Source of the DNA: an uncultured bacterium
GTDB lineage: Bacteria; UBP15; UBA6099; JAJRTR01
Assembly (NCBI GenBank): GCA_964595945.1
Contig: CAZQSL010000001.1
Location: 36,930 to 100,929 of the forward strand
Length of the DNA: 64,000 nt
Direction of reading: 5' to 3'
How positions within the stretch are numbered: the first letter of the stretch is position 1; every line of letters begins with the position of its first letter. The position numbers and the translations under genes were made by a program. The notes beneath the pieces are model-generated. The model had not been told where the DNA came from. It did not search any database and was given only the letters and a program-made list of their open reading frames with translations. Positions 2,607 to 48,421 of this stretch are shown piece after piece.

Positions 2607-4007
2607 TTGGAACCGATGAAGCTCTCACAGATCATCGAAGCAACCCGCGGCACTCTCACAAGAGGCAGCGCCGACGGCATCGTCATCTCCGGCATCCAGA
2701 CCGACAGCCGGCTCGACTGCTCCGGCTCGCTGTTTGTCCCACTTGCGGGGGAGACTTTCGATGGGCACGACTTCATCACACCCATTGCTGCCAAAGGCGC
2801 ACTGGGTTGCGTCGCATCCAGAGATTTCGACACTTCCGCGCTACCCGCAGAATTTTTCGTCATCCGCGTCGCTGATACCCTCGCGGCCCTTCAGGACATC
2901 TCTGGGGCTTACCGCCAGCAGTTCGACTCCGCTGTCATCGCCGTCACGGGCAGTTGCGGCAAAACGACTACCAAAAACATGCTTCGCACGATGTTTTCGG
3001 TCGCGGGAGACACCGTAGCGACTGCCAAAAACGAAAACAACGAAATCGGCGTACCATACACGCTGCTGCGGATCGCCTCCAGCACAAAATACACTGTCGT
3101 GGAAATGGGTATGCGCGCTCTCGGCGAAATCTCACGTCTCGCTCAAATCGCCGCTCCGACTCACGCCGTGATCACCAACGTCGAAAAAACACACATCGGC
3201 CGCCTCGGCTCAGAGGAAAACATCGCCAGGGCCAAGGGCGAACTGATCGAATCTCTCGATTCCTCCGGCACCGCGTTTCTCAATGCCGACAATATATGGA
3301 CATCCGAATTGCGCCGCCGCACCGCCGCCACTGTCATAACTTTCGGCATCGAACAAGGCGACGTGCGCTCGGAAAATGTCAAATTTTCTCTCGACGGCAT
3401 TTCGTTCGATCTGCTGCATCCCTCCGGCCGGATGAGCGTCACCCTGCCGCTGCCGGGCAAGGCGGCTGTATACAACGCGCTTTCCGCTGCCGCCGCGGGC
3501 CTTTCGCTCGGACTTTCTCCCGAAACGATCACCACCGGCCTCGCTGCTCCGATCGGCGAAAGCGGCCGCCTCGTCAAACATGTCTGTGACAACGGTACCG
3601 TCATACTCGACGATACTTACAACTCAAATCCGGCTTCGCTCAGCCTCGCGCTCGAACTCCTCGGCGGCGTAGCCTGGCATGGCCGCAAGGTCGCCGTACT
3701 CGGCGATATGCTCGAACTCGGTGACTTCAGCGAGAGCGAGCATTTCAGAGTCGGCGCTGAATTCGCTGCCGCCAACACCGATCTGCTCGTCACGATGGGC
3801 ACCGAAGCCGCCCACATAGCCGCCGGCGCACGCGGGGCGGCCCCAGCGATGCCGGTCATCTCTTTCGACACTTACGAACTGCTCGCCGATGCTGCGTCCT
3901 CGATTTTCAAATCCGGCGATCTCATTCTTGTCAAAGGTTCGCGCGGCATGAAGATGGAACGAATCGTGAATCTCATCAGCGGCAATCTTACGGGAGGGCG
4001 ATTATGA
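2607..4007 (+). CDS. murF: UDP-N-acetylmuramoyl-tripeptide--D-alanyl-D-alanine ligase
   Basis: Mur ligase P-loop GSCGKTTTK. Position between murE and mraY fits. The start is a TTG at 2607 or an ATG at 2616. Confidence 0.9.
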   Translation: MEPMKLSQIIEATRGTLTRGSADGIVISGIQTDSRLDCSGSLFVPLAGETFDGHDFITPIAAKGALGCVASRDFDTSALPAEFFVIRVADTLAALQDISGAYRQQFDSAVIAVTGSCGKTTTKNMLRTMFSVAGDTVATAKNENNEIGVPYTLLRIASSTKYTVVEMGMRALGEISRLAQIAAPTHAVITNVEKTHIGRLGSEENIARAKGELIESLDSSGTAFLNADNIWTSELRRRTAATVITFGIEQGDVRSENVKFSLDGISFDLLHPSGRMSVTLPLPGKAAVYNALSAAAAGLSLGLSPETITTGLAAPIGESGRLVKHVCDNGTVILDDTYNSNPASLSLALELLGGVAWHGRKVAVLGDMLELGDFSESEHFRVGAEFAAANTDLLVTMGTEAAHIAAGARGAAPAMPVISFDTYELLADAASSIFKSGDLILVKGSRGMKMERIVNLISGNLTGGRL

Positions 4008-4996
4008 GTCTGTTCGGCGATCCGGCGCTCGGCAAAGCCCTCTTGGCGGCAGGCATTTCATTTGCCTCCGGCATGGTGATCATGAAAGCGCTTATCGCGC
4101 TGCTCAACAAGGCCGGCATGCGGCAGATCATCCGCAAGGACGGTCCGCAGGCACATCTGAAAAAGGCGAAGACGCCGACTATGGGCGGTCTCGGTTTTTT
4201 CATCGCCTCCGTGATCGGCATCGCCGCTACCGGCGCGTTTGCGCACTCTACGACACGGCTTGTGATCATTACGGGATTTATTTGCCTGCTGATCGGTTTC
4301 GCTGATGATTTTGCCAAGTTCACGGGCAAGAGCACCGAAGGAGTCAAAGCCCGCTACAAGATTGTGATCGAACTCGCAGTAGCGATACTGCTCGCATATT
4401 TCATGGTCTGGCAAAGTACGCCAGACAAGCCTTACGACCTGATCTGGATGCCGTTCGGACTGAAGGGTATTCATCTTGGCCCGCTGTTTTACCCGTTTGT
4501 GATCGTGGTTTTCATGGGATCGCTAAACGGGGTCAATTTTACCGACGGTGTGGACGGGCTGCTGGGTGGCTGCTTCGTCGCCGTGTCGGCGGCATTCGCG
4601 GCGTTTATCGCGATGTATTCCGACCGCGCTCTGCTTGTGCCGCTAGCCGCAATATGCGGGGCTGTCGGCGCTTTTCTGTGGTACAACTCGCATCCCGCGA
4701 AGGTCTTTATGGGCGACACGGGATCGCTTTTCCTCGGCGGAGTGCTCGCGGCCATTGCAGTCGTTACGCGCACCGAGCTGTTTCTTTTTGTCGCCGGGCT
4801 TGTCTTCGTCGCCGAAGTGCTTTCGGTGATGATACAGGTGACATCGTACAAACTGACGAAAAAACGTGTTTTCCGCATGGCTCCGATACATCATCATTTC
4901 GAGCTTGGCGGCTGGAGCGAGACACAGGTATCAATACGATTTTGGATTGTCTCATGGGCCCTCGGACTCGTGGCTCTGCTGATTTTCGTAGTGTAA
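4004..4996 (+). CDS. mraY: Phospho-N-acetylmuramoyl-pentapeptide transferase
   Basis: Polytopic membrane protein whose ATGA start overlaps the murF stop. It carries the conserved MraY C-terminal motif (PIHHHFEL) and sits in the canonical dcw position. Confidence 0.92.
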   Translation: MSLFGDPALGKALLAAGISFASGMVIMKALIALLNKAGMRQIIRKDGPQAHLKKAKTPTMGGLGFFIASVIGIAATGAFAHSTTRLVIITGFICLLIGFADDFAKFTGKSTEGVKARYKIVIELAVAILLAYFMVWQSTPDKPYDLIWMPFGLKGIHLGPLFYPFVIVVFMGSLNGVNFTDGVDGLLGGCFVAVSAAFAAFIAMYSDRALLVPLAAICGAVGAFLWYNSHPAKVFMGDTGSLFLGGVLAAIAVVTRTELFLFVAGLVFVAEVLSVMIQVTSYKLTKKRVFRMAPIHHHFELGGWSETQVSIRFWIVSWALGLVALLIFVV

Positions 4997-8702: not shown

Positions 8703-9569
8703 ATGGAAATATTGATGATGATGAGTGAAGAAAAAAATGACAACATGCCAATAATTGGCGCATCCCCCGCGCCGGACGCCTCTCCGCGTCCAAAGCAGTC
8801 CGTGGGCACGCCGATGGAGACGACTATGCGCCGCATGAAAAAGCGAAAAGTCCGCGTCTGGCGTGTTGTGCTGCTCGCTTTTCTCGTCATGTGCGGCACT
8901 GTATTCGCTATCATCAACACCGATCCATTCAAAATCCGCACTGTAGAGGTCAGCGGCATCAGACGTGTCAGCGCCGAACAGATATACCGCGACTCTAATA
9001 TCGAAATCGGCGGCAACCTCGTGTGGCTGCGCACCTCGAAAATCAAACGCCGCATCGAACAGCGTCCTCTCGTCACCAGGGCTGTCATCCACAGGATACT
9101 CCCCTCGACTGTCAGCATCATCATCTTCGAGCGCAAGCCCTATGCCTATGTCACTAACGGCAAGGACTATTATCTGATCGACCGCGAGGGCTACGTGCTC
9201 GACCGCGTCGCGGGCATCGGCAACAAACAATTGTTCCGCGTCTACAGCAACAGTGTAAAACCCGCCCAAAGGGGCGAAAAACTCGTGTTTCCCCACTCGC
9301 CGGTATTCGACGATTTCGTGATCATACTCGACAAATACATGGCCGGCCGCTACCAGACCGTACGCTTTGACCGCCACGGCATCAAGCTCACGCTCCGCGA
9401 TGGCACCTACGTACTGCTCGGCAAGGGCAGCGACCTCGAAAAGAAAATTATGCTCGTACCGGTGATCACAGAAAAACTCAATGCCGCGCATGAGGAGTAC
9501 GAAGGCCTGAACCTTGAATACCTGTCAGTGCCGTCATTCATCGAAAAGGAGAAAACGGGCGCACAATGA
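8703..9569 (+). CDS. ftsQ: Cell division protein FtsQ/DivIB (POTRA domain)
   Basis: Single N-terminal TM segment (RVVLLAFLVMCGTVFAI) followed by a POTRA-like beta domain. Lies directly upstream of ftsA in the dcw cluster. Start codon choice is uncertain (8703 or 8715). Confidence 0.7.
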   Translation: MEILMMMSEEKNDNMPIIGASPAPDASPRPKQSVGTPMETTMRRMKKRKVRVWRVVLLAFLVMCGTVFAIINTDPFKIRTVEVSGIRRVSAEQIYRDSNIEIGGNLVWLRTSKIKRRIEQRPLVTRAVIHRILPSTVSIIIFERKPYAYVTNGKDYYLIDREGYVLDRVAGIGNKQLFRVYSNSVKPAQRGEKLVFPHSPVFDDFVIILDKYMAGRYQTVRFDRHGIKLTLRDGTYVLLGKGSDLEKKIMLVPVITEKLNAAHEEYEGLNLEYLSVPSFIEKEKTGAQ

Positions 9570-10485: not shown

Positions 10486-11719
10486 CGAAAACAGAATAGT
10501 GGCCGGCATAGACATCGGCACATCAAAAGTCTGCGCCCTCGTCGCCCGCGTGGACGAAGCCGGCAAGATCAGTGTCGCCGGCGCTGGCGTCGCGCCCAAT
10601 GACGGCATGAAAAAAGGCCTCGTCGTCGACATCGACAAGGTTTCACACGCGGTCTTTACAGCAGTAGATCAGGCCGAAAAAGCCGCTGGATGCGTCGCCG
10701 AAAACGTCTATGTGACCGTATCCGGCAATCACGTTACTACCAATGCCGGCAGAGGCTCGGCCCCCGTTGCCAATCCTGAACGGGGCGTCGCTCCCGACGA
10801 TGTCCGGCGCGCGCTCGACGCTTCGAAATATCTCTTGATCCCGCCAGACAAAAAGATCATTGGCGTGATCGAAAACGACTTCACTCTCGATGGCCACGGC
10901 GGAGTGACCGACCCGGTAGGCATGGCTGGCTCACACCTTGAGGTCAACGTCCAGATAGTCACCGGAGCCACGGCTTCCGTGCAAAATCTCCTGCGAAGCA
11001 TCGACAAGGTCGGCATAGAGGTCGATGCCATGATGCCCGCAGTGCTCGCCTCAGGCGAAGCCGTACTCAACAGCGACGAAAAGAAAGTCGGAATACTGCT
11101 GATCGATTTCGGCGCTGGCACGACGTCGCTCGCTATGTTTCGCAATGGTTTCATGACCGATGCGAGGGTCATCCCCATCGGCAGTTCACATATAGACAAC
11201 GACATCGCTGTAGTGCTCGGCACATCGCCGGCAGATGCCGAAAAACTAAAAATCGAATACGGCAGCGTATCACCGAAACTCCGCGATGAAAGTACTCCCG
11301 TCGAAGTCACCCTCATCGGACGCGACGAAAAAAACCAGATACCGCGAGGAATGCTCTGTCAGGTGATACAGCCACGTATCGCCGAACTCCTCGACATCAT
11401 CGTCAAGGAACTTCGCGACAGCTTCAGCAACGCCACACCGCCCGCCGGAATTGTCATCACTGGCGGCGGCGCTCACCTGCCCGGCATGATCGAGGCAGTC
11501 GAACAAAAACTCGGCTATCACGTACGACTCGGCAAAACGCTCTACGCGGGCGAAAACGCCGCTCGCCTCGGCGATCCGCGATTTACCGCTGCAGCTGGCC
11601 TCCTGAGATGCGCGGCAGCGAGAGTAGGGAAAATGCGCTATGAGCAAGAATCACAACCGTCCCCCTTCAAAGGAGCCTGGCTCACACTGGTTGCCTTTTT
11701 TAGAGGACTTTTTAAATGA
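10472..11719 (+). CDS. ftsA: Cell division protein FtsA
   Basis: Actin-fold N-terminus [17 protein letters not shown] and an FtsA-specific domain layout. Immediately upstream of ftsZ. Confidence 0.9.
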
Positions 11720-26168: not shown

Positions 26169-27176
26169 ATGACCACAAACAGCATCCAGCTACTCAGGGA
26201 AAAGGCCGAACTCTCCTTCGCCCGGCGTGGCCTCGCATGGGGGGGATTCACCGGCGCGCTCTGGGGACTCGACGGGGTACTTCTCGGCATCGTGCTTGGC
26301 ATGGCGCCGTTCAACGACGCAAAGGTTTCAATGCTCATCGCTCCCATCGTAGCCGCTGCCATCCATGACGGGTTCGCCGCACTGTGGCTATTTATCATTA
26401 ATATTTCATCCGGCAAATTCCGGGAATTTCGCCGCACGCTCGCTACCAGACCCGGCAAGGTCGTATGTATCGCGGCACTCTGCGGAGGCCCCATAGGCAT
26501 GACCGGCTACCTGCTGGGCATCAATCATGCCGGCCCAGCCTACGCGATGTCCATATCCGCGATCTATCCTGCTCTCGGGTCGGTATGCGCCATGTTTTTC
26601 CTCAAGGAACGTATCTCGCCACGCGCGTGGGCAGGCATTGCGTTAAGCGTCACGGGAGCCATTATTGTCGGGTGGCAGCCACCATCTGGCAACGCTCCAC
26701 ACTTCTATCTCGGCGTCGCTTTCGCCTGTATGGCCGCTGTCGGCTGGGGGCTCGAAAGCGTACTCTCCACCTACGGCATGGACCTCATCGACCCCGACAT
26801 CGCCATCAACATCCGGGAAGCCGTCTCTTTTCTCGCATACATGATCATCATTGTCCCGGCCATCGGCGGCATGGGATTTCTCGCCGCTGCCGTCCCTGAA
26901 AAAACCACTCTCCTCATCGCTGCCACCGCTCTCGCTGGCGGCCTGTCATACTTCTCGTGGTATCGTGCGATGAACATGACTGGTGTCGGACGCGCCATGG
27001 CTCTCAGTGTCACCTATGTCATCTGGAGCATCGTCTACAGTGTCGTACTGACCCGGTTGGGCCTGATGGAATTCCGCCTCACTCCATTTATCATCGGCGG
27101 CGCTGCCGCCATCACCACCGGCACACTTCTCATCATCAGCAATCCCGGAGAACTGCTCAAGCTCAGAAACAACTGA
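26169..27176 (+). CDS. DMT superfamily (EamA-like) transporter
   Basis: About 10 TM segments arranged as two EamA-like halves. GGAG RBS. Confidence 0.62.
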   Translation: MTTNSIQLLREKAELSFARRGLAWGGFTGALWGLDGVLLGIVLGMAPFNDAKVSMLIAPIVAAAIHDGFAALWLFIINISSGKFREFRRTLATRPGKVVCIAALCGGPIGMTGYLLGINHAGPAYAMSISAIYPALGSVCAMFFLKERISPRAWAGIALSVTGAIIVGWQPPSGNAPHFYLGVAFACMAAVGWGLESVLSTYGMDLIDPDIAINIREAVSFLAYMIIIVPAIGGMGFLAAAVPEKTTLLIAATALAGGLSYFSWYRAMNMTGVGRAMALSVTYVIWSIVYSVVLTRLGLMEFRLTPFIIGGAAAITTGTLLIISNPGELLKLRNN

Positions 27177-27194
27177 CCCGAGGAGGTGTCAACC

Positions 27195-27470
27195 TTGTCC
27201 GCCACGCAACTGCCCCTGAAAATGTCCGTACTCCGCGAAACCACCACCGCGGCGCTCTCCCCCGCGCAGATCGTCGAAAGGCTCGCCCCCTCGTACGGCG
27301 GCGAAAAACAGCTCAACCTTTCGACTGTCGAGTCGCATCTCATGGCCCTCCGCGCAGTGGGACTCGTCGAGGCGGACAATCCGCGGATCATCGACGGCTC
27401 TCTTGTCCTCAGCTTCGCCGCTACCGATGCCGGTCGCGCTAAATTCGCTCAGTATGGAAATAATTCCTAA
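27195..27470 (+). CDS. Small hypothetical protein, possible winged-helix DNA-binding protein
   Basis: A TTG at 27195 lies 9 nt after a GAGGAGG RBS. The segment STVESHLMALRAVGLVE resembles an ArsR/MarR-type recognition helix. Confidence 0.35.
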   Translation: MSATQLPLKMSVLRETTTAALSPAQIVERLAPSYGGEKQLNLSTVESHLMALRAVGLVEADNPRIIDGSLVLSFAATDAGRAKFAQYGNNS

Positions 27471-27753
27471 CCGTTCACGGAATACTCGCGGAGGACCTTT
27501 TGTGCAGAAAAGGTCCTCCGCACCTCTCATATATACTGAATATCAACAGAAATTCCCTACCACAATTTATCGAAGCGACCCGATAGAGCAGCCTTGTATC
27601 AGGCGGGGATAACCCCAGCCCCTTCGAAAAACAGTCATGAGCTATCCGTGAAATCCGTGTCAAAAAGTTTTTTATTGTTTTCGGATGGTACACCAGATCA
27701 TCCCGGCAGACCATAACCATACGTTGGGAAATTCGATTGATATTTCATATAAT
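27468..27753 (+). repeat. Composite dispersed repeat, copy 2 (flank 27468-27491, palindromic hairpin 27490-27519, 28-nt block 27531-27557, 100-nt block 27652-27753)
   Basis: Shares the 28-nt and 100-nt blocks with copy 1. Its 5' flank plus hairpin recur inverted at 40223-40278. Its 28-nt block recurs inverted at 48262-48290. Confidence 0.7.
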
Positions 27754-37186: not shown

Positions 37187-38128
37187 CTATTCGCCCCGCA
37201 TCGCATCACGCAGCGCGCGGTAGCCGAGCAGTTTTATACCGTTGTCCATTATGGCGGCCTGCACATCCTTGTCGAGCAGCAGATCGAGATGTGTCTGCCG
37301 GTTGAGGCGGTCAGAGTCACCAGGGGCGCCGGCGCCGGGATGCAGCAGCAATTCGGAAACGCCGTCGGGCATGGTGGAGATAATGGTGAGGAGCTTCGCT
37401 TTTTTCTCTTCGAATGGACCCGGGATGTCGATGGCGAAAAAACGATCGGGCACGGCGATGCCCTTCGAGGCAGGCATGGGGTCGGCCGGTTTGCCCACCC
37501 ACCGGATCGGCAGCCGGTACTTGCGAGCGAGCGAAAAAACCACCGACAGCATGTTGGGATCGTAAGAATGGTAAAATCCTCTGTGACAGTCGAAATGGGT
37601 GACATCTACACCGAGAGCGAAGGCGCGGTCGAGCTGCGCGGTGAGTTCCGCCTCCACATCCTTCTTCTTCATCCTGGCCGGATTGGGGATGCCGTCGAAA
37701 AACGCGCCATCGGAGTCAAGTAGCGAAACGACAGCCTGGGGCGGCGCAAGAGGGCGCACGCGCGTGCCGTAATTGCCCTCATCGCTTCCGAGTACGAGAT
37801 GTACTCCTACATCCATATCCGGGCGTGTCCTGATAATGCCCATAGCTTCGTTTGCATAAGGGAATGAAACCATAAAACTCGTACTCGTCAGGTATCCACT
37901 GTCGAATCCCTTAACTATAGCCTCGTTGACCCACTCATTCATGCCGAGGTCATCACCGTTGATTATCAGGACTTTTCTGGCATTGTACTTTTCGAGGACG
38001 AGCCTGGAATATTTCCCAACATCTGCCGCCTGGATGCTCACACAGGCAAGCAATGTGAGTAGGAATATCGTCAAAAATGACAAAACGCGGAGCTTATTGC
38101 CGTTGAGGTTGTCATTGTCCATCATCAT
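37187..38128 (-). CDS. ChbG/YdjC family carbohydrate deacetylase
   Basis: YdjC-like N-terminal INGDDLGMNEWVNEAIVKGFDSGYLTS. Start chosen at the ATG run at 38128, which has a GGGGGAG RBS. Confidence 0.75.
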   Translation of the reverse strand: MMMDNDNLNGNKLRVLSFLTIFLLTLLACVSIQAADVGKYSRLVLEKYNARKVLIINGDDLGMNEWVNEAIVKGFDSGYLTSTSFMVSFPYANEAMGIIRTRPDMDVGVHLVLGSDEGNYGTRVRPLAPPQAVVSLLDSDGAFFDGIPNPARMKKKDVEAELTAQLDRAFALGVDVTHFDCHRGFYHSYDPNMLSVVFSLARKYRLPIRWVGKPADPMPASKGIAVPDRFFAIDIPGPFEEKKAKLLTIISTMPDGVSELLLHPGAGAPGDSDRLNRQTHLDLLLDKDVQAAIMDNGIKLLGYRALRDAMRGE

Positions 38129-38295
38129 TCTCCCCCAAAAAATCATTTGCCACCGAACCAATACTGATTATAATAAAATTGCGTGATGAAAAGCACACCT
38201 ATTTTTTTTAAAAATTATATGGCGAAAGATGTGTTGGTGGTATAATTGAATTGAGCATATACATTCTGACGCCAACATGAGATAAGGTGGTCAAT

Positions 38296-39393
38296 ATGAA
38301 AAAACTGATAACAGCACTCACGACAACGGCGTTCTGCGCATTCATGGCAATGGCCGCGCAAGCCGGTACCGGTACAGAGACCAACTGGTCCGCATCGCTA
38401 CTCTTTTCGACCCAGCCATCAGGCGGAGCGGCAGGGACAGAGGTAAAAGACCTCATGCCCATCGTCGTGGGTCAGGGGCCGGTCGCAACCGAGCTCCTGA
38501 AACCACCGTCGCTGCCGGGAAAAAATATCACCAATAGCGATGATGACGCCAGAGTCAACGCATATATCGTGACAGAAGACTCCAAAAAGGCAGCCCGCAG
38601 CCTTTCGCTTGCGAGCGCCGCAACGAACGGCAAAGCCTGGGCGATAGATGTAGAAGTGGAGCAAACCGGTACAGACCTCTATGTCGAGGTAGACCCTTCA
38701 TCGTTCTACAATGGTTACACATTCACCGTCGTCAATCCCGACACCAAGGAACTCACCTCCTTCACCACGGCTGAAATGGCTACGACCACAAAGAAAAAAG
38801 TCGCCACAAATGTAGCGGCCAAGACCACGATTGTCGTGGTCGCCGGCACATCGCAGACATTCGCGGTGTCCAACGGCACAAGCGTATTCGGTACGGCAGC
38901 CAGAAAAGGCGGTGCGCCACAGTCCGGTATTGGCATCTATGTGGGAAAAATCCCCGGGGAGGGCGTGACTCCTGATGCTATAACGGATTCCACTGGTGTA
39001 TATTCGCTTGCCCTGTCTTCTGGCACATACAAGATCAGGATGGACAAAGATTATTATCTCGGTACCGAATGCGACAGCATCACGGTATCAGACGCAGGAT
39101 CATCAACCGTAGTATGCGGTGACATCTATGCCGGTGATTTCAACAACAATGGTAGTATCAACGCATTAGACATCGCAGTGCTCGCAAAAGTGTATTTATG
39201 TGCTTACACTCAGGCGATCGCCACGTGCATGGTAGATGATACTAAATGCAATTACTGCAACATGCTCAAGACCACCTATGCTTCTGATCCCAATTCAAGC
39301 ATCTTTTATGATATTAACAACGATAAGGTGATCAACGTACTGGATATCGCCCAAATGAAAAGCGGGTACTACAGATCCGAGCCGTGGAAATAA
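38296..39393 (+). CDS. Secreted dockerin-containing protein with carboxypeptidase-regulatory-like (PEGA/CarbopepD_reg) domain
   Basis: Signal peptide and AAGGTGG RBS. A DSTGVYSLALSSGTYKI beta-sandwich segment. Two C-terminal dockerin type-I calcium-binding repeats (DFNNNGSINALDIAVLAKVY and DINNDKVINVLDIAQMKSGYY). Confidence 0.75.
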   Translation: MKKLITALTTTAFCAFMAMAAQAGTGTETNWSASLLFSTQPSGGAAGTEVKDLMPIVVGQGPVATELLKPPSLPGKNITNSDDDARVNAYIVTEDSKKAARSLSLASAATNGKAWAIDVEVEQTGTDLYVEVDPSSFYNGYTFTVVNPDTKELTSFTTAEMATTTKKKVATNVAAKTTIVVVAGTSQTFAVSNGTSVFGTAARKGGAPQSGIGIYVGKIPGEGVTPDAITDSTGVYSLALSSGTYKIRMDKDYYLGTECDSITVSDAGSSTVVCGDIYAGDFNNNGSINALDIAVLAKVYLCAYTQAIATCMVDDTKCNYCNMLKTTYASDPNSSIFYDINNDKVINVLDIAQMKSGYYRSEPWK

Positions 39394-39423
39394 TAGATCA
39401 TACCGAAGTAACCGGAATTTATA

Positions 39424-39453
39424 GCCCCCGCGAGATACATCGGGGGCTTTTTT
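39424..39453 (+). terminator. Rho-independent terminator after the dockerin gene
   Basis: Hairpin gcccccg-cgagatacat-cgggggc followed by a T run. Confidence 0.65.
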
Positions 39454-40062
39454 GCGGGCGCTTCCTTCTTTTGGATACTTTGTGAAACATCCTTGTTGAT
39501 AATATTTCTGGCTTTCGCCATCCGAAATAGTACAATTCTTCGCTGCTTGCGGCGAATATGAACGTGTGCATCTTATGATACCCCGCAAGCGGCGTGGAAT
39601 TAGACCCGAAGAGAATGAATGACCCCGGAGCAAATTCTCTCCGATCAAACTATCCTTGTATGGTAAGCCCAATGCTGTTTACTTAAGCTGTCATTCCGGG
39701 ACGATGCCCCGGATTCTATGAGACATGAAGTCAGGAGGGGCTTTCGAATACAGATGTTATTATCTTAAGTAAACAGCATAGAGGCTAAGCCAGTGAAAAC
39801 TGAATTGCATCAGTTGGTAATTATAGCTTATGATGGCGGTATGGTATGATTCGCATTAGAGCCTGTCCACGAACTGTCGAGTTGCCGAATGACAATGTAT
39901 TTTCTATAACAATGCGGCATCATAATCGCTAACCATGAGGTATTATTGTAACATCGTCACAATCGTTTACGAGTTTTTAGCCAGGCTCATAAATGCTTGT
40001 CATTCTGAGCGAAGCGAAGAATCTTGCTTGCCTTTTCTTAACATTATCGGCAAGCGTTCACG

Positions 40063-40094
40063 ACAAGAGCATGGAGACCCCCTTTTTGAAAAAA
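40063..40094. repeat. GGAG...CTCC palindromic hairpin family member
   Basis: ggagaccccctttttgaaaaaatggggtctcc. Perfect long palindrome with a T-run/A-run interior. Confidence 0.6.
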
Positions 40095-40150
40095 TGGGGT
40101 CTCCAAACCTCTACCGAAAAACTTTATATGATATACTCCAGCCATTTTTT

Positions 40151-40188
40151 GCGGGTTACAAGCGGCATATCAGCCGCTTGTAACCCGC
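40151..40188. repeat. Perfect 16-bp-stem hairpin flanked by a T run (5') and an A run (3')
   Basis: gcgggttacaagcggc-atatca-gccgcttgtaacccgc. Looks like a bidirectional terminator between convergent genes. Confidence 0.55.
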
Positions 40189-40222
40189 AAAACCAGAGAA
40201 TCCTCCAAACATAGGGAGTTTT

Positions 40223-40278
40223 TTGGAGAGGTGCGGAGAACCTTTTTTGCAAAAAAGGTTCTCCGCGAGTATTCCGTG
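40223..40278. repeat. GGAG...CTCC palindromic hairpin plus inverted copy of the repeat-copy-2 flank
   Basis: gcggagaaccttttttgcaaaaaaggttctccgc, then cgagtattccgtgaacggttaac. This is the reverse complement of 27468-27519. Confidence 0.65.
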
Positions 40279-40478
40279 AACGGTTAACATTATCGCGCGT
40301 GCGGGGCTGAGGCGCGTTCCATCAGCCATTTGGTTATGACATACGCTTTTTCCAGCGCTACAGCTTCACTTGAAATCCCGCATCACCCCTATTCTAAAAT
40401 TTTTTCGGAGAGCAGGGGGCTCCGCCCCCTGCACCCCCACAAAGGATAAAAGATTAAAAGCAAAAAGGCTAAAAAAGA

Positions 40479-43040
40479 TTAGTCCTGAGCACAACGAAAG
40501 CCGCGATTGAGGGACCAGTTAGAAGGAACGTACCTGAAGCGAACGGAGACGCGCGAGTACCAGACGTAGTCGATGCCGTCCCAGGAGCCGCCGCGCAAAA
40601 CCCGGAGGTCGTAGTCGCCTATAGTTGGGCCTGTCGGGTCGGTCGACGGGCTCGATGAATAATAGTCGCTCCCATACCAGTCGTTCACCCATTCCCACAC
40701 ATTCCCGCCCATATCCATCACTCCATAATAGCTCTTGTCACTCGAATAACTCCCCACTGCCGCCGTATCGTTTGTTTCACCAGTTACACATGAATGATAT
40801 GTGCTATTTATATCGTGGTAGCCCCTGACATTGCCATAGCATCCGGGCGTACTTCCCCACGGATAGATGTTTGTACTCGGACTCGGCCCCCGCGCCGCCT
40901 TTTCCCACTGCGCTTCCGTAGGCAACTTGCCCCCATACCACGCGCAGAAAAGCGCCGCCTGCGTCCATGTCACATTTATCACGGGATAGTTCGCATACGC
41001 CGAGTTACCGTAATATGACGCCCGTGTGGATGACGATGTGCTACCCGGCGCGGTGCATGAGCCAGCCGCGACGCACGCCTCATATTGCGCGTTCGTCACT
41101 TCGTGTTTCATGATCTTGTATTCAGAAAGATTTACCGTGTGCCTCGGCTGTTGGTCGCTCAAGCAAAAGGAATACCACTTTTTTATTGGGTTACCGTATC
41201 CGTCGTCTGTGTCGTAATAATACCCATCGCCGCTGGCCGCTGATGTGTCCGAGCACCCCATGAGGAAATTCCCCGCGGGGATCGTGATCCACTCGTCCGT
41301 CGGCGTGCCGCTCACCTCGTTGCTTGCCGTGCATTTATCACTGGTATCGCAGGCGTAGACCTTGAAGTAGTATTTCGTGTCCTTCGTCAGCCCCGTGACA
41401 GTCTGTGTGGTATGTGTTTTCGATGTGATGGTGTTGACAGGAGTTGACGACAGAGTGACGCCGGGTGAGGTGGAGCGATAGACTTTGTAGTAGGCGAAAT
41501 TGGTTTTCGAGCTTTGCGACCATGAGAGATCGAGAGATGTGGCCGTGATGTTGAACGGTACGTTCAGGGGCAGCCCGTTTTCGACCGTGATTGATTCGGA
41601 TGTCAATTCGGTAGTGGCGCCATCCTTGTCGGTGACGGTGACTTTTGCGGTGTATGTGCCTGCCGTTTCGTAGGTGTGCGAGGGATTTTTTTCCGTGGAC
41701 GTGCCGCCGTCGCCGAATTTCCACGAATAGGACACGCACGTGATGTCGTCGTCGCTGCAATCAATTTTGAAGCTGACGTCGAGTGGCGATTCGCCGCTTG
41801 CGGGTGATGCTTCCATGGTGGGGGCATGTGCGATTTTTCTTTCGGTAATTGTGAATGCTCCCGTATCCCAGCTCTCAAGCTCATGATCGAAAATTTCTAT
41901 TTGAAATTTTGCCCCGGCTTCAAGGCCGGCGGCAAGTTCCCACAGAGGTTTGACCGTCACTCCTTCGGACAATTGAACGGATTCGCCAGCCAGCATCCTG
42001 AGGTACCCGTTTATGTAGGCTGAGGGCCCGGCAACATTGTACAGCAGCAGTTCGAGTTCGAGGCCGCAATATGCCTTGACCTCTGCCGTGAGAGTTACCT
42101 TTGGAGCATCGTACGAAATGACATTGGTGAATTCCTTGACGGTTGACCATTTCTTGTCGGCATAGCGCATGCCCGCAGTGACCTTAGCGGATTGGACGAT
42201 CTCGGCGGTGAGCGTAGTGGTGATCTTGCCCTGAAGACCAACGTAGACTGTCAGCTTGGGGACGAATACGAGCGGTATGCCGGCATTTACCACAAACGGT
42301 TTGAATTTGAATTTATATATCGGGATTTCCTCTTTAAAACCGGCCAACGGCAGTTTTGAATCCAGTTTGATGTCGAGTTCTTCTTTTGCCGAAGTGGTAA
42401 ACAACAGGCTTTCGAGTTTGAAGCTCTTGATCCGCGCTTTGAAATTCACCGAAGGAGTGAGTGTCACAGAACCCGTGATAGTGGTCTGGTCGTCAAGAGT
42501 GTTTTTGTTGTTGTCCTCGTCATACAGCACATTTTTCAGTTCAATGGAAAAGGATTTCAGATCAAGGTTCGCGGACCGTTTCAGCGAAACGCCTTTCTGA
42601 AGAGCCTCCTCCGAGCTAACATCGTCGAGGGTCAATTCACGGGACACCTCGATGTCGGCCTGCTCAATAGCGTCAGCAAGCGCGGCATTTTCCACGGTGA
42701 CAACGGTGGAGCCGCTGTTGGATGTTTTGGCAACAACCTTCTTCAGCAAGCCGTATGGCGCAGCATCCGTTGGCGCGGAGGCGATGATATCGCCGATGGC
42801 AAGCGCCTGAAGTTGCGGGGTATCGGTGGCGAAAGTGATGGTGTCGGTGGCGACTTCGGTTATGCCAGCGCGAGTTTCGCCATCTAACACACGGGTTTTT
42901 TCACTGAGTACTGTGGGCACGCTCGAATCAGAGGTGCTGCCGCCCCCTCCCCCGCAGCCGCCTGCTGCTATGACGAGGATGGCAAGGATTGCGATGCTGG
43001 TGATGTGTTTCAGATGGTTTGTGCGGTGTGTGTTTTTCAT
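40479..43040 (-). CDS. Large lipoprotein with PKD, fibronectin-III-like and C-terminal FGE-sulfatase (SUMF1-like) domains
   Basis: The ATG at 43040 has a GGAGGA RBS. Lipobox at IAAGGC followed by a Gly/Ser linker. PKD-like motif WKFGDGGTSTEKNPSHTYETAGTYTAKVTVTD. FN3-like segment with FAYYKVYRS. The final ~300 aa carry FGE-sulfatase signatures (RGGSW...GFRCA). The track ORF starts 39 codons upstream. Confidence 0.8.
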   Translation of the reverse strand: MKNTHRTNHLKHITSIAILAILVIAAGGCGGGGGSTSDSSVPTVLSEKTRVLDGETRAGITEVATDTITFATDTPQLQALAIGDIIASAPTDAAPYGLLKKVVAKTSNSGSTVVTVENAALADAIEQADIEVSRELTLDDVSSEEALQKGVSLKRSANLDLKSFSIELKNVLYDEDNNKNTLDDQTTITGSVTLTPSVNFKARIKSFKLESLLFTTSAKEELDIKLDSKLPLAGFKEEIPIYKFKFKPFVVNAGIPLVFVPKLTVYVGLQGKITTTLTAEIVQSAKVTAGMRYADKKWSTVKEFTNVISYDAPKVTLTAEVKAYCGLELELLLYNVAGPSAYINGYLRMLAGESVQLSEGVTVKPLWELAAGLEAGAKFQIEIFDHELESWDTGAFTITERKIAHAPTMEASPASGESPLDVSFKIDCSDDDITCVSYSWKFGDGGTSTEKNPSHTYETAGTYTAKVTVTDKDGATTELTSESITVENGLPLNVPFNITATSLDLSWSQSSKTNFAYYKVYRSTSPGVTLSSTPVNTITSKTHTTQTVTGLTKDTKYYFKVYACDTSDKCTASNEVSGTPTDEWITIPAGNFLMGCSDTSAASGDGYYYDTDDGYGNPIKKWYSFCLSDQQPRHTVNLSEYKIMKHEVTNAQYEACVAAGSCTAPGSTSSSTRASYYGNSAYANYPVINVTWTQAALFCAWYGGKLPTEAQWEKAARGPSPSTNIYPWGSTPGCYGNVRGYHDINSTYHSCVTGETNDTAAVGSYSSDKSYYGVMDMGGNVWEWVNDWYGSDYYSSSPSTDPTGPTIGDYDLRVLRGGSWDGIDYVWYSRVSVRFRYVPSNWSLNRGFRCAQD

Positions 43041-43640
43041 GTGTGTCCTCCGGCCGGGTGATTGTGGCTGCTGGTGGCTCTGTTTTGCGTTTTCGCGAAG
43101 CGGAATTTTCATGCAGTTACAATTGTTGAAGTGTGTCTTTTTGCGATTATATATCATTGCACGCTGTATGGGAAGGGAAATATTGAATATCCCGAGAACA
43201 TCAAGAAGTCAAACCTAAAATCATCTGAAGAATAATTTGTAACAAAATCACTCGGTACAATTAGTCATGCAACTCGATGATAGCTAATGGAAGCGGTAGT
43301 ATTTCCGCATATATGGCGATCTATCCGACACTCGTTGCCGTAATCCGAAAGAGTAGTTGTCAATAATTTGTGGTCTTGTATGTTACATATAAAAAGATGC
43401 TATATGTTACGTCAAATGTAGCAGATCGGGCTATACCGGATTGTATGTCATTGGAGTAATCTTAAGTGGTAAGTTGAGATGTCAGCGTTATGGCAGACAT
43501 CATGTGAGCATAAGTCCACATTGTTGCCCAATGTCTCACAAGTCGGGCAGGATACGGCAGATCGTTGCCGGATGTCATGGTTACAACCGGCATCCTAATG
43601 CCGGGAACAAATTCGAAGTCATTTTTGGCCATTCAAATAA

Positions 43641-47719: not shown

Positions 47720-47775
47720 CGATTGCACGGCACGCCCCAGCTATCCAATTCTATACTCACCTTGTCAAAAAGTGC

Positions 47776-47804
47776 TTGACAGCCGAAAGAAACGGTGCAT
47801 AAAT
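47776..47804 (+). promoter_or_regulatory. Sigma-70-type promoter (TTGACA-17-ATAAAT)
   Basis: TTGACA at 47776-47781, a 17-nt spacer, and ATAAAT at 47799-47804. Immediately followed by GAAGGAGG and the ATG at 47816. Confidence 0.55.
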
Positions 47805-47815
47805 GAGAAGGAGGA

Positions 47816-47944
47816 ATGATGAAAATCAGCAGGAGCGAACACCATGCCACTCATCACATAGTTTCCGAAAGGCGTCAGCGCACAGCGGACAAGTTCAGCA
47901 AAGTAACAGCAAACGCTACAGCACAGACAATATCACACCTGTAG
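47816..47944 (+). CDS. Candidate 42-aa small basic His-rich protein (MMKISRSEHHATHHIVSERRQRTADKFSKVTANATAQTISHL)
   Basis: The ORF lies directly behind a consensus promoter and a GGAGG RBS. It is below the track's length cutoff. There is no downstream same-strand gene. The hairpin at 48155-48188 follows. Confidence 0.3.
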   Translation: MMKISRSEHHATHHIVSERRQRTADKFSKVTANATAQTISHL

Positions 47945-48154
47945 TCGTCGGCGTGTAGAGCCCCATTATCGGTAACGGCTTCAACGAATACTACTCGCTT
48001 TTCAGACGTACAACTTCCTGCCAGACGACATCCAAACCGCAAAGTCCGGTATTATGAGAATGGTTCACTTGGAGATGGAACTGCGACAACCAGAACAACG
48101 CCTGTAACAATAATTGGATTCTATCTATACGATAAATTATTTAAATTTGCCTAC

Positions 48155-48188
48155 CGGAGAAACCTTATTCGAGAAAAAGGTTTCTCCG
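48155..48188. repeat. GGAG...CTCC palindromic hairpin family member
   Basis: cggagaaaccttattcgagaaaaaggtttctccg between convergent genes. It is followed at 48262-48290 by an inverted copy of the 28-nt repeat block. Confidence 0.6.
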
Positions 48189-48421
48189 CACCTCTTCCCA
48201 AAAGCTTTATATGATTAACTTTTCTCCAAGTTACCGTTTCATTGTGCTACCCACAGCGGTAGGTAATTTCTATTGATATTCAGTATATTCCAATATTAGG
48301 AGGAACATCAATGAAAACGCAGGGAACCAGGCATCCATATCGGATGATCCTTTGTTCATAAAGGAGGCGTTCAGACGGCAGGATTAGGGATTTGCACAAA
48401 GTCTGAATTGGTGGAGCAATA

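Follow-up and report, generated by a model that had tools for sequence, protein, structure and literature searches.

Convergent genes enclose a gene-free spacer rich in hairpins

The DNA analysed here, hereafter the window, is a 64,000-nt stretch of contig CAZQSL010000001.1 from an uncultured bacterium, and our subject is a gene-free spacer of about 1 kb within it (39454–40478, or 39394–40478 when counted from the upstream stop codon). Two genes converge on this spacer, as a preliminary description of the locus had stated: a Dockerin_1 protein gene on the left (38287–39393, plus strand) and a gene for a PKD/fn3/FGE-sulfatase protein on the right (40479–43157, minus strand). That description had also called the spacer low in G+C and free of credible open reading frames (ORFs), and both statements held. 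The G+C content is 0.40–0.48, compared with about 0.52–0.62 across most of the flanking coding sequence, and the ten longest stop-to-stop segments gave no Pfam match below E = 0.1. A pseudogene was rejected because the segments of the spacer carry no Pfam signal. Low G+C begins within the 3′ end of the dockerin gene (0.43–0.45), and intergenic DNA of the window is commonly G+C-poor (for example, 0.36 at 43100–43400).

Long inverted repeats are concentrated in the spacer. It holds three perfect stems of at least 14 bp, of which 500 dinucleotide shuffles produced none (mean 0.0), and six of at least 9 bp, against a mean of 0.4 in the same number of shuffles. The whole window contains only six perfect stems of 12 bp or more (loops of up to 100 nt); three are in the spacer, and two of the remaining three are copies of a GGAG-hairpin family described below. 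The longest, a perfect 20-bp stem, closes a 6-nt loop (40147–40192), and its G+C core is all that had been recognized previously, as a perfect 16-bp stem at 40151–40188. A 17-bp perfect palindrome (40233–40266) and a hairpin with 16-nt arms that are 94% complementary (40072–40105) flank it, and a pair of perfect 16-nt arms lying 76 nt apart (39672–39687 and 39764–39779) had been missed. A 9-bp GC stem, reported earlier at 40399–40420, is real but lies about 12 nt away, at 40412–40432. Two plus-strand stem-loops that begin with tgtcattc complete the set: TGTCATTCCGGG, which starts at 39689 rather than at 39692 as first given, and TGTCATTCTGAG, correctly placed at 39998. Folding of a 262-nt composite (40036–40297) yielded −73.4 kcal/mol, compared with −27.6 ± 3.4 kcal/mol for shuffles (z = −13.6). 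The strong inverted repeats of the preliminary description were therefore confirmed, and the spacer is structured beyond what shuffled sequence gives.

Two stem-loops resemble TGTC-tagged palindromic repeats

Searching the literature by sequence led from these stem-loops to the Neisseria dRS3/NTS repeat CGTCATTCCCGCGMAVGCGGGAATCYRG. This repeat has been placed in a superfamily of CGTC-tagged repetitive extragenic palindromes (REPs), in which the tag is often TGTC, stems are initiated by A-T pairs, units form head-to-head dimers and the usual location is a spacer flanked by convergent or tandem genes (Di Nocera et al. 2013, PMC3733652). Judged by their sequence, the two tgtcattc stem-loops are probably TGTC-tagged members of this superfamily, which also takes in Ssn-related motifs (SRMs). 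Both carry an unpaired (C/T)GTC tag at the end of the palindrome (39689 and 39998), with GTC ahead of the stem and a C directly after it; both stems begin AT...AT (ATTC...GAAT in the family); and, like other members, they are extragenic, sit between convergent genes and are paired head to head. REP 1 (39689..39716, plus strand) reads TGTC-ATTCCGGG-ACGATGC-CCCGGATT-C and represents a diverged version of the widespread (C/T)GTCATTCCGGG...CCCGGAATCCA repeat, also written (C/T)GTCATTCCGGGCTYGACCCGGAATCCA, from which it differs by a longer loop and one broken pair; it has 8 stem positions, one of them a mismatch, and a 7-nt loop. In REP 2 (39998..40023, plus strand; T-GTCATTCTGAGCGAAGCGAAGAATC), an ATTCT/AGAAT stem encloses tandem G.A pairs and a GCGAAGC mini-hairpin, which replace the G+C stem of the known repeats, giving 9 stem positions with two G.A mismatches and a loop of 3 or 5 nt. 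The norm for CGTC REPs is a stem of 8–9 bp, a loop of 4–5 nt and a 3-nt tail near CCA, and canonical relatives that we recovered from IMG/VR fit it in stem, loop and tail.

Both units recur far outside the window. The pattern GTCATTCCGGGN{3,9}CCCGGAWTC, which captures the CCGGG-stem relatives of REP 1, was found at 20 loci in IMG/VR, and one contig packs as many as 18 copies into 7.4 kb. The exact 25-mer GTCATTCTGAGCGAAGCGAAGAATC of REP 2 (39999–40023) is present in 35 IMG/VR contigs that range in G+C content from 0.37 to 0.64 and have unrelated flanks, and it is often followed by an inverted, slightly different partner.

One of these contigs links the 25-mer to a candidate enzyme. In Neisseria, NTS is bound only as single-stranded DNA and is cut a few nucleotides upstream by SsnA, a single-domain GIY-YIG nuclease of 94 amino acids; most important are the three bases that precede the stem and the C that follows it, and across phyla ssn genes are typically bracketed by SRMs (Chenal et al. 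2025, PMC11893778). In IMG/VR contig L037, an exact 25-mer lies upstream of a GIY-YIG ORF (10847–11218, minus strand; 100-amino-acid class), and downstream of it come a variant that differs by one base and an exact copy in inverse orientation. This ORF was picked up by phmmer using a YhbQ query sequence and was then confirmed by Pfam (PF01541, E = 5.5e-12); searches of NCBIfam and PDB sequences with it returned nothing further. By its sequence, the arrangement is the SRM–ssn–SRM layout described across phyla (PMC11893778), with the ORF as a candidate ssn gene of the cd10448 type. One exact variant, with its GCGAAGC core, is thus common to very different genomes and stands beside a GIY-YIG gene in one of them.

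The spacer contains two further, degenerate tagged units, both on the minus strand. One (39579..39623) has its GTCATTC tag at 39623–39617, and the other (39868..39894) carries the tag TGTCATTC and lies head to head with REP 2, with 104 nt between the tags. The four tagged units thereby form two head-to-head pairs, in each of which a readable plus-strand unit faces a decayed minus-strand partner. GTCATTC occurs four times in the spacer, where 0.10 occurrences would be expected from the rest of the window (40-fold, P = 3.5e-6), and three of the six window occurrences of TGTCATTC are in the spacer (P = 1.9e-5).

Overlapping the first degenerate unit, the stretch CCGCAAGCGGC.GGGAAT..GACCCGRAGAG (39579–39620) matches intergenic DNA of Pantoea, Edwardsiella and Caballeronia plasmids, all proteobacterial, over 32–42 nt at 86–94% identity (E = 2e-3 to 7e-3; L043 3001–3032 and L044 3001–3042). 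Its Caballeronia counterpart is found about 430 nt upstream of an IS110-family transposase. Neither E. coli genomes nor IMG/VR contain the stretch; one of the E. coli searches mostly matched an unrelated plasmid palindrome.

A second repeat family forms a branched 260-nt palindrome

The two hairpins that the preliminary description had grouped as a GGAG/CTCC family proved to be inverted, tail-to-tail copies of an oriented repeat. Copy D (40053..40137, plus strand; 79.7 bits with a covariance model) consists of the head CGTTCACG..., the hairpin GGAGACCCCC-TTTTTGAAAAAAT-GGGGTCTCC and the tail AAACCTCTACCGAAAAACTTTATATGAT. Copy A (40200..40283, minus strand; 53.4 bits) consists of the head AACCGTTCACGGAATACTCGC, the 17-bp perfect palindrome GCGGAGAACCTTTTTTG/CAAAAAAGGTTCTCCGC and the tail ACCTCTCCAAAAAACT. 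Two more copies lie elsewhere in the window: copy B (27468..27537, plus strand), 27 nt past a stop codon, and copy C (48154..48220, plus strand), in a convergent spacer of about 700 nt. Within the window, the covariance model detects these four copies and no others, where none would be expected by chance. All of them lie between convergent genes.

Self-comparison of the window supports the grouping. Copies A and B are 88.6% identical over 70 nt (40217–40286, minus strand, and 27468–27537; sensitive self-comparison), and copies D and C are 75% identical (40073–40137 and 48156–48220). Aligned, the four copies share a head, a GGAG...CTCC stem around a centre made of a T run and an A run, and a tail of the form (G/A)(C/A)ACCTCT.CC.AAAA.CT, or ACCTCT..CCAAAAACT. 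Pairing in the stem is conserved through substitution: 97% of the alignment cells are paired, 4 of the 12 pairs have changed on both sides, and none of 500 shuffles reached the observed score.

Copies A and D meet tail to tail around the 20-bp hairpin (40147..40192; TTTTGCGGGTTACAAGCGGC, loop ATATCA, GCCGCTTGTAACCCGCAAAA), so that the whole forms one branched palindrome of about 260 nt. A perfect 12-nt direct repeat, TTAACATTATCG, brackets it on the left (40038..40049) and on the right (40284..40295), both on the plus strand, and for this reason the palindrome looks like an insertion. The 20-bp hairpin has a T run on its 5′ side and an A run on its 3′ side and is therefore not a terminator on either strand. 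We rejected it as a member of a wide family, as its 16-mer core had only chance matches in IMG/VR, none with the partner arm. The composite (40050–40283) is comparable to miniature inverted-repeat transposable elements (MITEs) and to REPIN doublets: it is MITE-sized, has long imperfect terminal inverted repeats, folds as a single long hairpin within the bracket of the direct repeat, and its arms occur solo elsewhere, as REP singletons do. It differs in that only the arms recur and the whole is not repeated, and in that related pairs lack a target-site duplication. We know of no cognate transposase for it.

When JGI metagenomes were scanned with a pattern, true relatives came from two unrelated contigs, L004 (Ga0351881_1034; G+C 0.59), which has three copies (two of them variants), and L007 (G+C 0.39). 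A scan of genome contigs for the pattern of copies A, B and D gave one chance match, in an actinomycete metagenome-assembled genome (MAG).

L004 contains a 950-nt ORF-free spacer of its own (3600–4540), in which a canonical CGTC REP (CCGTCATCCCAGCGAAAGCTGGGATCCA) stands with a T/A-centre repeat variant, two copies of a CCCCGGACTGAAGTCCGG hairpin and one GGAGTGCG...CGCACTCC hairpin. The same kinds of repeat therefore co-occur in a different organism. Elsewhere on that contig, a cobalamin riboswitch (9306–9493, minus strand; Rfam RF00174, 92 bits) lies upstream of an operon that ends in an ABC-transporter ATPase-like gene beside the copy that we call E. In L007 (1840–2046), two additional hairpins come after the GGAG-hairpin copy; the first of them reuses the tail (CTTCCCAAAAACTTT / AAAGTTTTTGGGAAG), and all three are enclosed by GCAGAG-rich inverted ends of about 29 nt (CAACGCAGAGGTCGCAGAGTACGCAGAGA ... 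TCTCTGCGACCTCTGCGTACTCTGCGTTG) in a MITE-like package.

The hairpins belong to a wider class with a T/A centre

The covariance model also matched weaker relatives in high-G+C IMG/VR contigs, and a scan of IMG/VR with TTTTTGAAAAA..CMAAAAACTTT returned at least 120 loci. Among the matches listed, 35 loci have at least 11 paired stem positions, and they span G+C contents of 0.32–0.72. The class keeps its centre and tail constant, while stems and purine-rich heads vary. Again among the matches listed, about 15 distinct pairs are arranged tail to tail and only 1–2 head to head, and the pair in the spacer has the same geometry. The segment between the tails is variable (43–62 or about 99 nt) and often contains a GC hairpin.

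Three proposals about this class found no support. The 15 related pairs show no target-site duplication beyond the control level, so that such a duplication is not a feature of the family. The gene context of tail-to-tail pairs, which by crude gene calls is mixed and includes divergent and tandem spacers, does not support a terminator role. Reading of the copies excluded a conserved small ORF across the T/A hairpin, because the T and A runs differ in length between copies, which shifts the frame.

Neither Rfam nor a sequence-based literature search supplied a name, and the GGAG/CTCC hairpins appear, from their sequences, to belong to a wider repeat class without one. An A/T-rich centre and tail that stay constant from 32% to 72% G+C while the stems covary may merit a study of their own. 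We also entertain, as a speculative and rather unlikely proposal, that this is an undescribed class crossing phyla, whose units combine a head rich in purines with a stem that covaries, a centre that does not vary (TTTTTTGAAAAAAA) and a CAAAAAACTTTT tail, and are arranged nearly always tail to tail around a variable core. A dedicated structure-specific enzyme acting on DNA would then serve this class, in the manner of RAYT for REPs and Ssn for SRMs, and the 260-nt palindrome with its direct repeat would be a fresh insertion of a pair.

The spacer is probably a mosaic of small palindromic repeats

We favour, with reasonable though incomplete confidence, the reading that small interspersed palindromic repeats of at least two kinds, the tagged REPs (kind 1) and the GGAG/CTCC hairpins (kind 2), have accumulated between the convergent genes and make the spacer a mosaic comparable to the bacterial interspersed mosaic elements (BIMEs) of enterobacteria and the Neisseria intergenic mosaic elements (NIMEs). 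The data show that these repeats are real and occur again elsewhere, that their stems covary, and that another contig connects the 25-mer with a GIY-YIG gene. With BIMEs and NIMEs, the spacer shares several short palindromic kinds in alternating orientation within one long extragenic spacer, together with unique linkers and decayed copies, and the CGTC units of Neisseria are likewise clustered in mosaic intergenic regions with other repeat families. It differs in the sequences of its units and in that no RAYT, integration host factor site or Correia-type element was identified; moreover, the window shows one such cluster and a partial second (47720–48421). A mosaic of this sort is a known kind of feature, and kind 2 is an apparently nameless, widespread class. 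The comparison would explain an odd 1-kb spacer as a cluster of repeats, in place of an overlooked gene, a locus for small RNAs or the scar of a prophage. An uncultured lineage, anaerobic and Gram-negative, would also join those known to carry TGTC/CGTC (Ssn-related) hairpin repeats. CGTC REPs were catalogued in five phyla in 2013, and the host appears to fall outside these, with its glutamate dehydrogenase nearest to Planctomycetota-type sequences at only 77% identity.

How such a mosaic might arise can be outlined by analogy. Kind-1 units would fold into hairpins in single-stranded DNA, where Ssn-type GIY-YIG nucleases would bind, and cut beside, the GTC tag at the 5′ end and the C that follows the stem. 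Both kinds may act as DNA, serving as hairpin substrates for structure-specific nucleases or transposases, and units would spread or decay as selfish or domesticated elements. Repeats would be tolerated in a 3′–3′ spacer because there is no promoter there to disrupt, and, when transcribed, they may only stabilize or insulate the 3′ ends of both mRNAs. A recombination hotspot, as suggested earlier, would be plausible only by analogy with Neisseria dRS3/NTS clusters (PMC11893778).

Several observations count against the mosaic or parts of it. About half of the spacer (39787–39997, 40296–40398 and part of 39454–39533) falls in no repeat. The tgtcattc stem-loops are singly unexceptional in folding energy (z = −0.4 and −1.8), and their significance comes from family membership; their loops, and their tails of CTT and CTA instead of CCA, depart from the description of the CGTC family. 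The published SRM expression HGTCWYN(0-2)YYVSBRHN(0-5)WNVSBRGN(0-2)RNCYNB has no match on either strand of the window, while a Neisseria NTS control matches. The window contains no small GIY-YIG or Ssn-like ORF, and flanking of a single-domain GIY-YIG gene was thus found for the sequence type (in L037) and not for the genome of the window, in which copy number is known from 64 kb only. For kind 2, no enzyme is linked to the family, gene context elsewhere is mixed, and the 12-nt direct repeat, although it resembles a target-site duplication, is not family-wide, as related pairs elsewhere lack one.

Alternative explanations fare less well. The spacer could encode one or more structured non-coding RNAs, either small RNAs or long 3′ untranslated region elements, with the hairpins as regulatory RNA structures. 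The covarying GGAG-family stems, the very stable fold, the co-orientation of copies A–D and of copy E in L004 with the upstream gene, and the view that REPs in 3′ spacers are transcribed (PMC3733652) all fit this idea. However, no Rfam family reached its gathering threshold on the spacer (the top model, a plastid 3′-UTR hairpin, scored 29.8 bits against a threshold of 51.5), and related loci yielded nothing either; a known non-coding RNA is thus not supported. Promoter-like sites are no more numerous than in shuffles, and no terminator-like end lies within the spacer. Short units that recur with unrelated flanks in many taxa behave as dispersed DNA repeats and not as genes, the L007 copy is antisense to both of its neighbours, and SsnA acts at the related NTS on single-stranded DNA and not on RNA. 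We regard an RNA locus as unlikely. Somewhat less likely again is a set of terminators or insulators that separates convergent transcription units. The genes do converge, a canonical terminator (39423–39453) follows the dockerin gene, a GC hairpin lies 47 nt past the other stop codon, and the GGAG-family copies of the window all sit in convergent spacers. Intrinsic (Rho-independent) terminators share with the spacer the presence of G+C-rich stems downstream of genes, but only 39423–39453 has the required polarity of a G+C stem followed by a T run. In the large hairpins, T runs lie 5′ and A runs 3′ of the stem, or within it, and the hairpins at 40072–40105, 40147–40192, 40233–40266 and 40412–40432 do not qualify; the three longest have no 3′ T run on either strand and lie 210–680 nt from the stop codons. 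Related tail-to-tail pairs also occur in divergent and tandem spacers, and 1 kb is far beyond what insulation needs. The early impression that this is more than a simple terminator region therefore stands.

The least probable of the alternatives, to which we give very little weight, derives the spacer by decay from a larger mobile element, for instance the end of a prophage, an insertion sequence or an integrative element. Such a remnant would fit a G+C content below that of the flanking genes, the 12-nt direct repeat around a 234-nt inverted-repeat structure and a 121-nt unit with terminal inverted repeats (see below). Low G+C is, however, normal for the intergenic DNA of the window, no frame of the spacer has a protein-family signal, and no tRNA or tmRNA was found in the 64 kb. 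Phage records show no similarity to the spacer and plasmid records none longer than 32–42 nt, and a Pfam scan that covered the 27 larger ORFs in the window, with about 20 others, all located before 25 kb, outside its scope, revealed no transposase, integrase or phage gene. The earlier suggestion of a mobile or phage remnant thus survives only in its first half, as small REP- or MITE-like repeats that recur in the window and in unrelated contigs.

Gene ends, further repeat units and genomic context

Read from the sequence, the terminator-like hairpin of the dockerin gene (39423..39453, plus strand) consists of AGCCCCCG, a 10-nt loop and CGGGGGCT, followed by TTTTTT, and its DNA folds at −9.5 kcal/mol (z = −1.9); our pattern scan missed it because its loop exceeds 8 nt. 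The GC hairpin downstream of the FGE-sulfatase gene (40401..40443, minus strand; z = −3.2) is GCAGGGGGC-GGA-GCCCCCTGC with a GGGGGT 5′ flank and no T run alongside. It may stabilize the 3′ end of the mRNA or terminate weakly. Its 9-bp stem recurs at 27 IMG/VR loci, several of which also share a GGGGT or GGGT flank, and the hairpin may itself be a tagged repeat. In high-G+C IMG/VR loci retrieved through the GCAGGGGGC hairpin (L049, L052, L058, L060, L061, L063, L065 and L068), 'GGGT + GC hairpin' units stand in tandem, as in GGGT-GCAGGGGGC-TCG-GCCCCCTGC-C-GGGT-CCAGGGC-GGC-GCCCTGG, and T/A-centre repeats are also present in L049, L061 and L063.

Two more structures lie in the left half of the spacer. 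An imperfect inverted pair (39534..39601) has 24-nt arms that are 79% complementary and surround mini-hairpins of the CCGCAAGCGG type; the fold of 39530–39660 has z = −3.6, and the left arm holds ATTCTTCGCT, which corresponds to a part of the 25-mer REP in reverse complement. The pair is probably two decayed repeat units. A 121-nt unit (39666..39786; fold z = −5.4) encloses REP 1 between terminal inverted repeats of about 22 nt, 16 nt of which are perfect (ATGCTGTTTACTTAAG / CTTAAGTAAACAGCAT). We rejected it as a repeated MITE, as neither the window nor IMG/VR contains a second copy.

The genes of the window are ordinary chromosomal ones, including those for FtsK, BamA, LpxD, GlyQ, UvrC, an [FeFe]-hydrogenase, a GH38 mannosidase and glutamate dehydrogenase. 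Judging from protein comparisons, the collections contain no close relative of the organism. The best non-self matches of glutamate dehydrogenase are 74–78% identical, with none above 78%, and those with names come mostly from Planctomycetota-type MAGs (Phycisphaerae and Sedimentisphaerales) and also from Zixibacteria, Omnitrophica and Bacteroidota. Matches of the FGE-sulfatase protein are confined to its PKD domain. The dockerin protein is an orphan, for which a database search returned only the protein itself on a 1.4-kb Logan contig. This contig (SRR15237810), an independent assembly of the source sample, corresponds to window positions 38042–39456 and ends directly past the dockerin terminator, precisely where the repeat-rich spacer starts. 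Such a stop would be expected if repeats break short-read assembly; low coverage is the alternative.

Copies C and B of the GGAG family have distinct surroundings. Copy C lies in a second long, ORF-poor convergent spacer of about 700 nt (47720–48421), between the gene for a PPDK_N-domain protein and an unannotated 424-amino-acid ORF, and this spacer may represent another repeat cluster of this kind on a smaller scale. Upstream of copy B, an EamA-transporter ORF (26169–27176) and a 161-amino-acid ORF with no Pfam match (26957–27442) overlap by 220 nt in different frames, which makes the true gene ends upstream of that copy uncertain.

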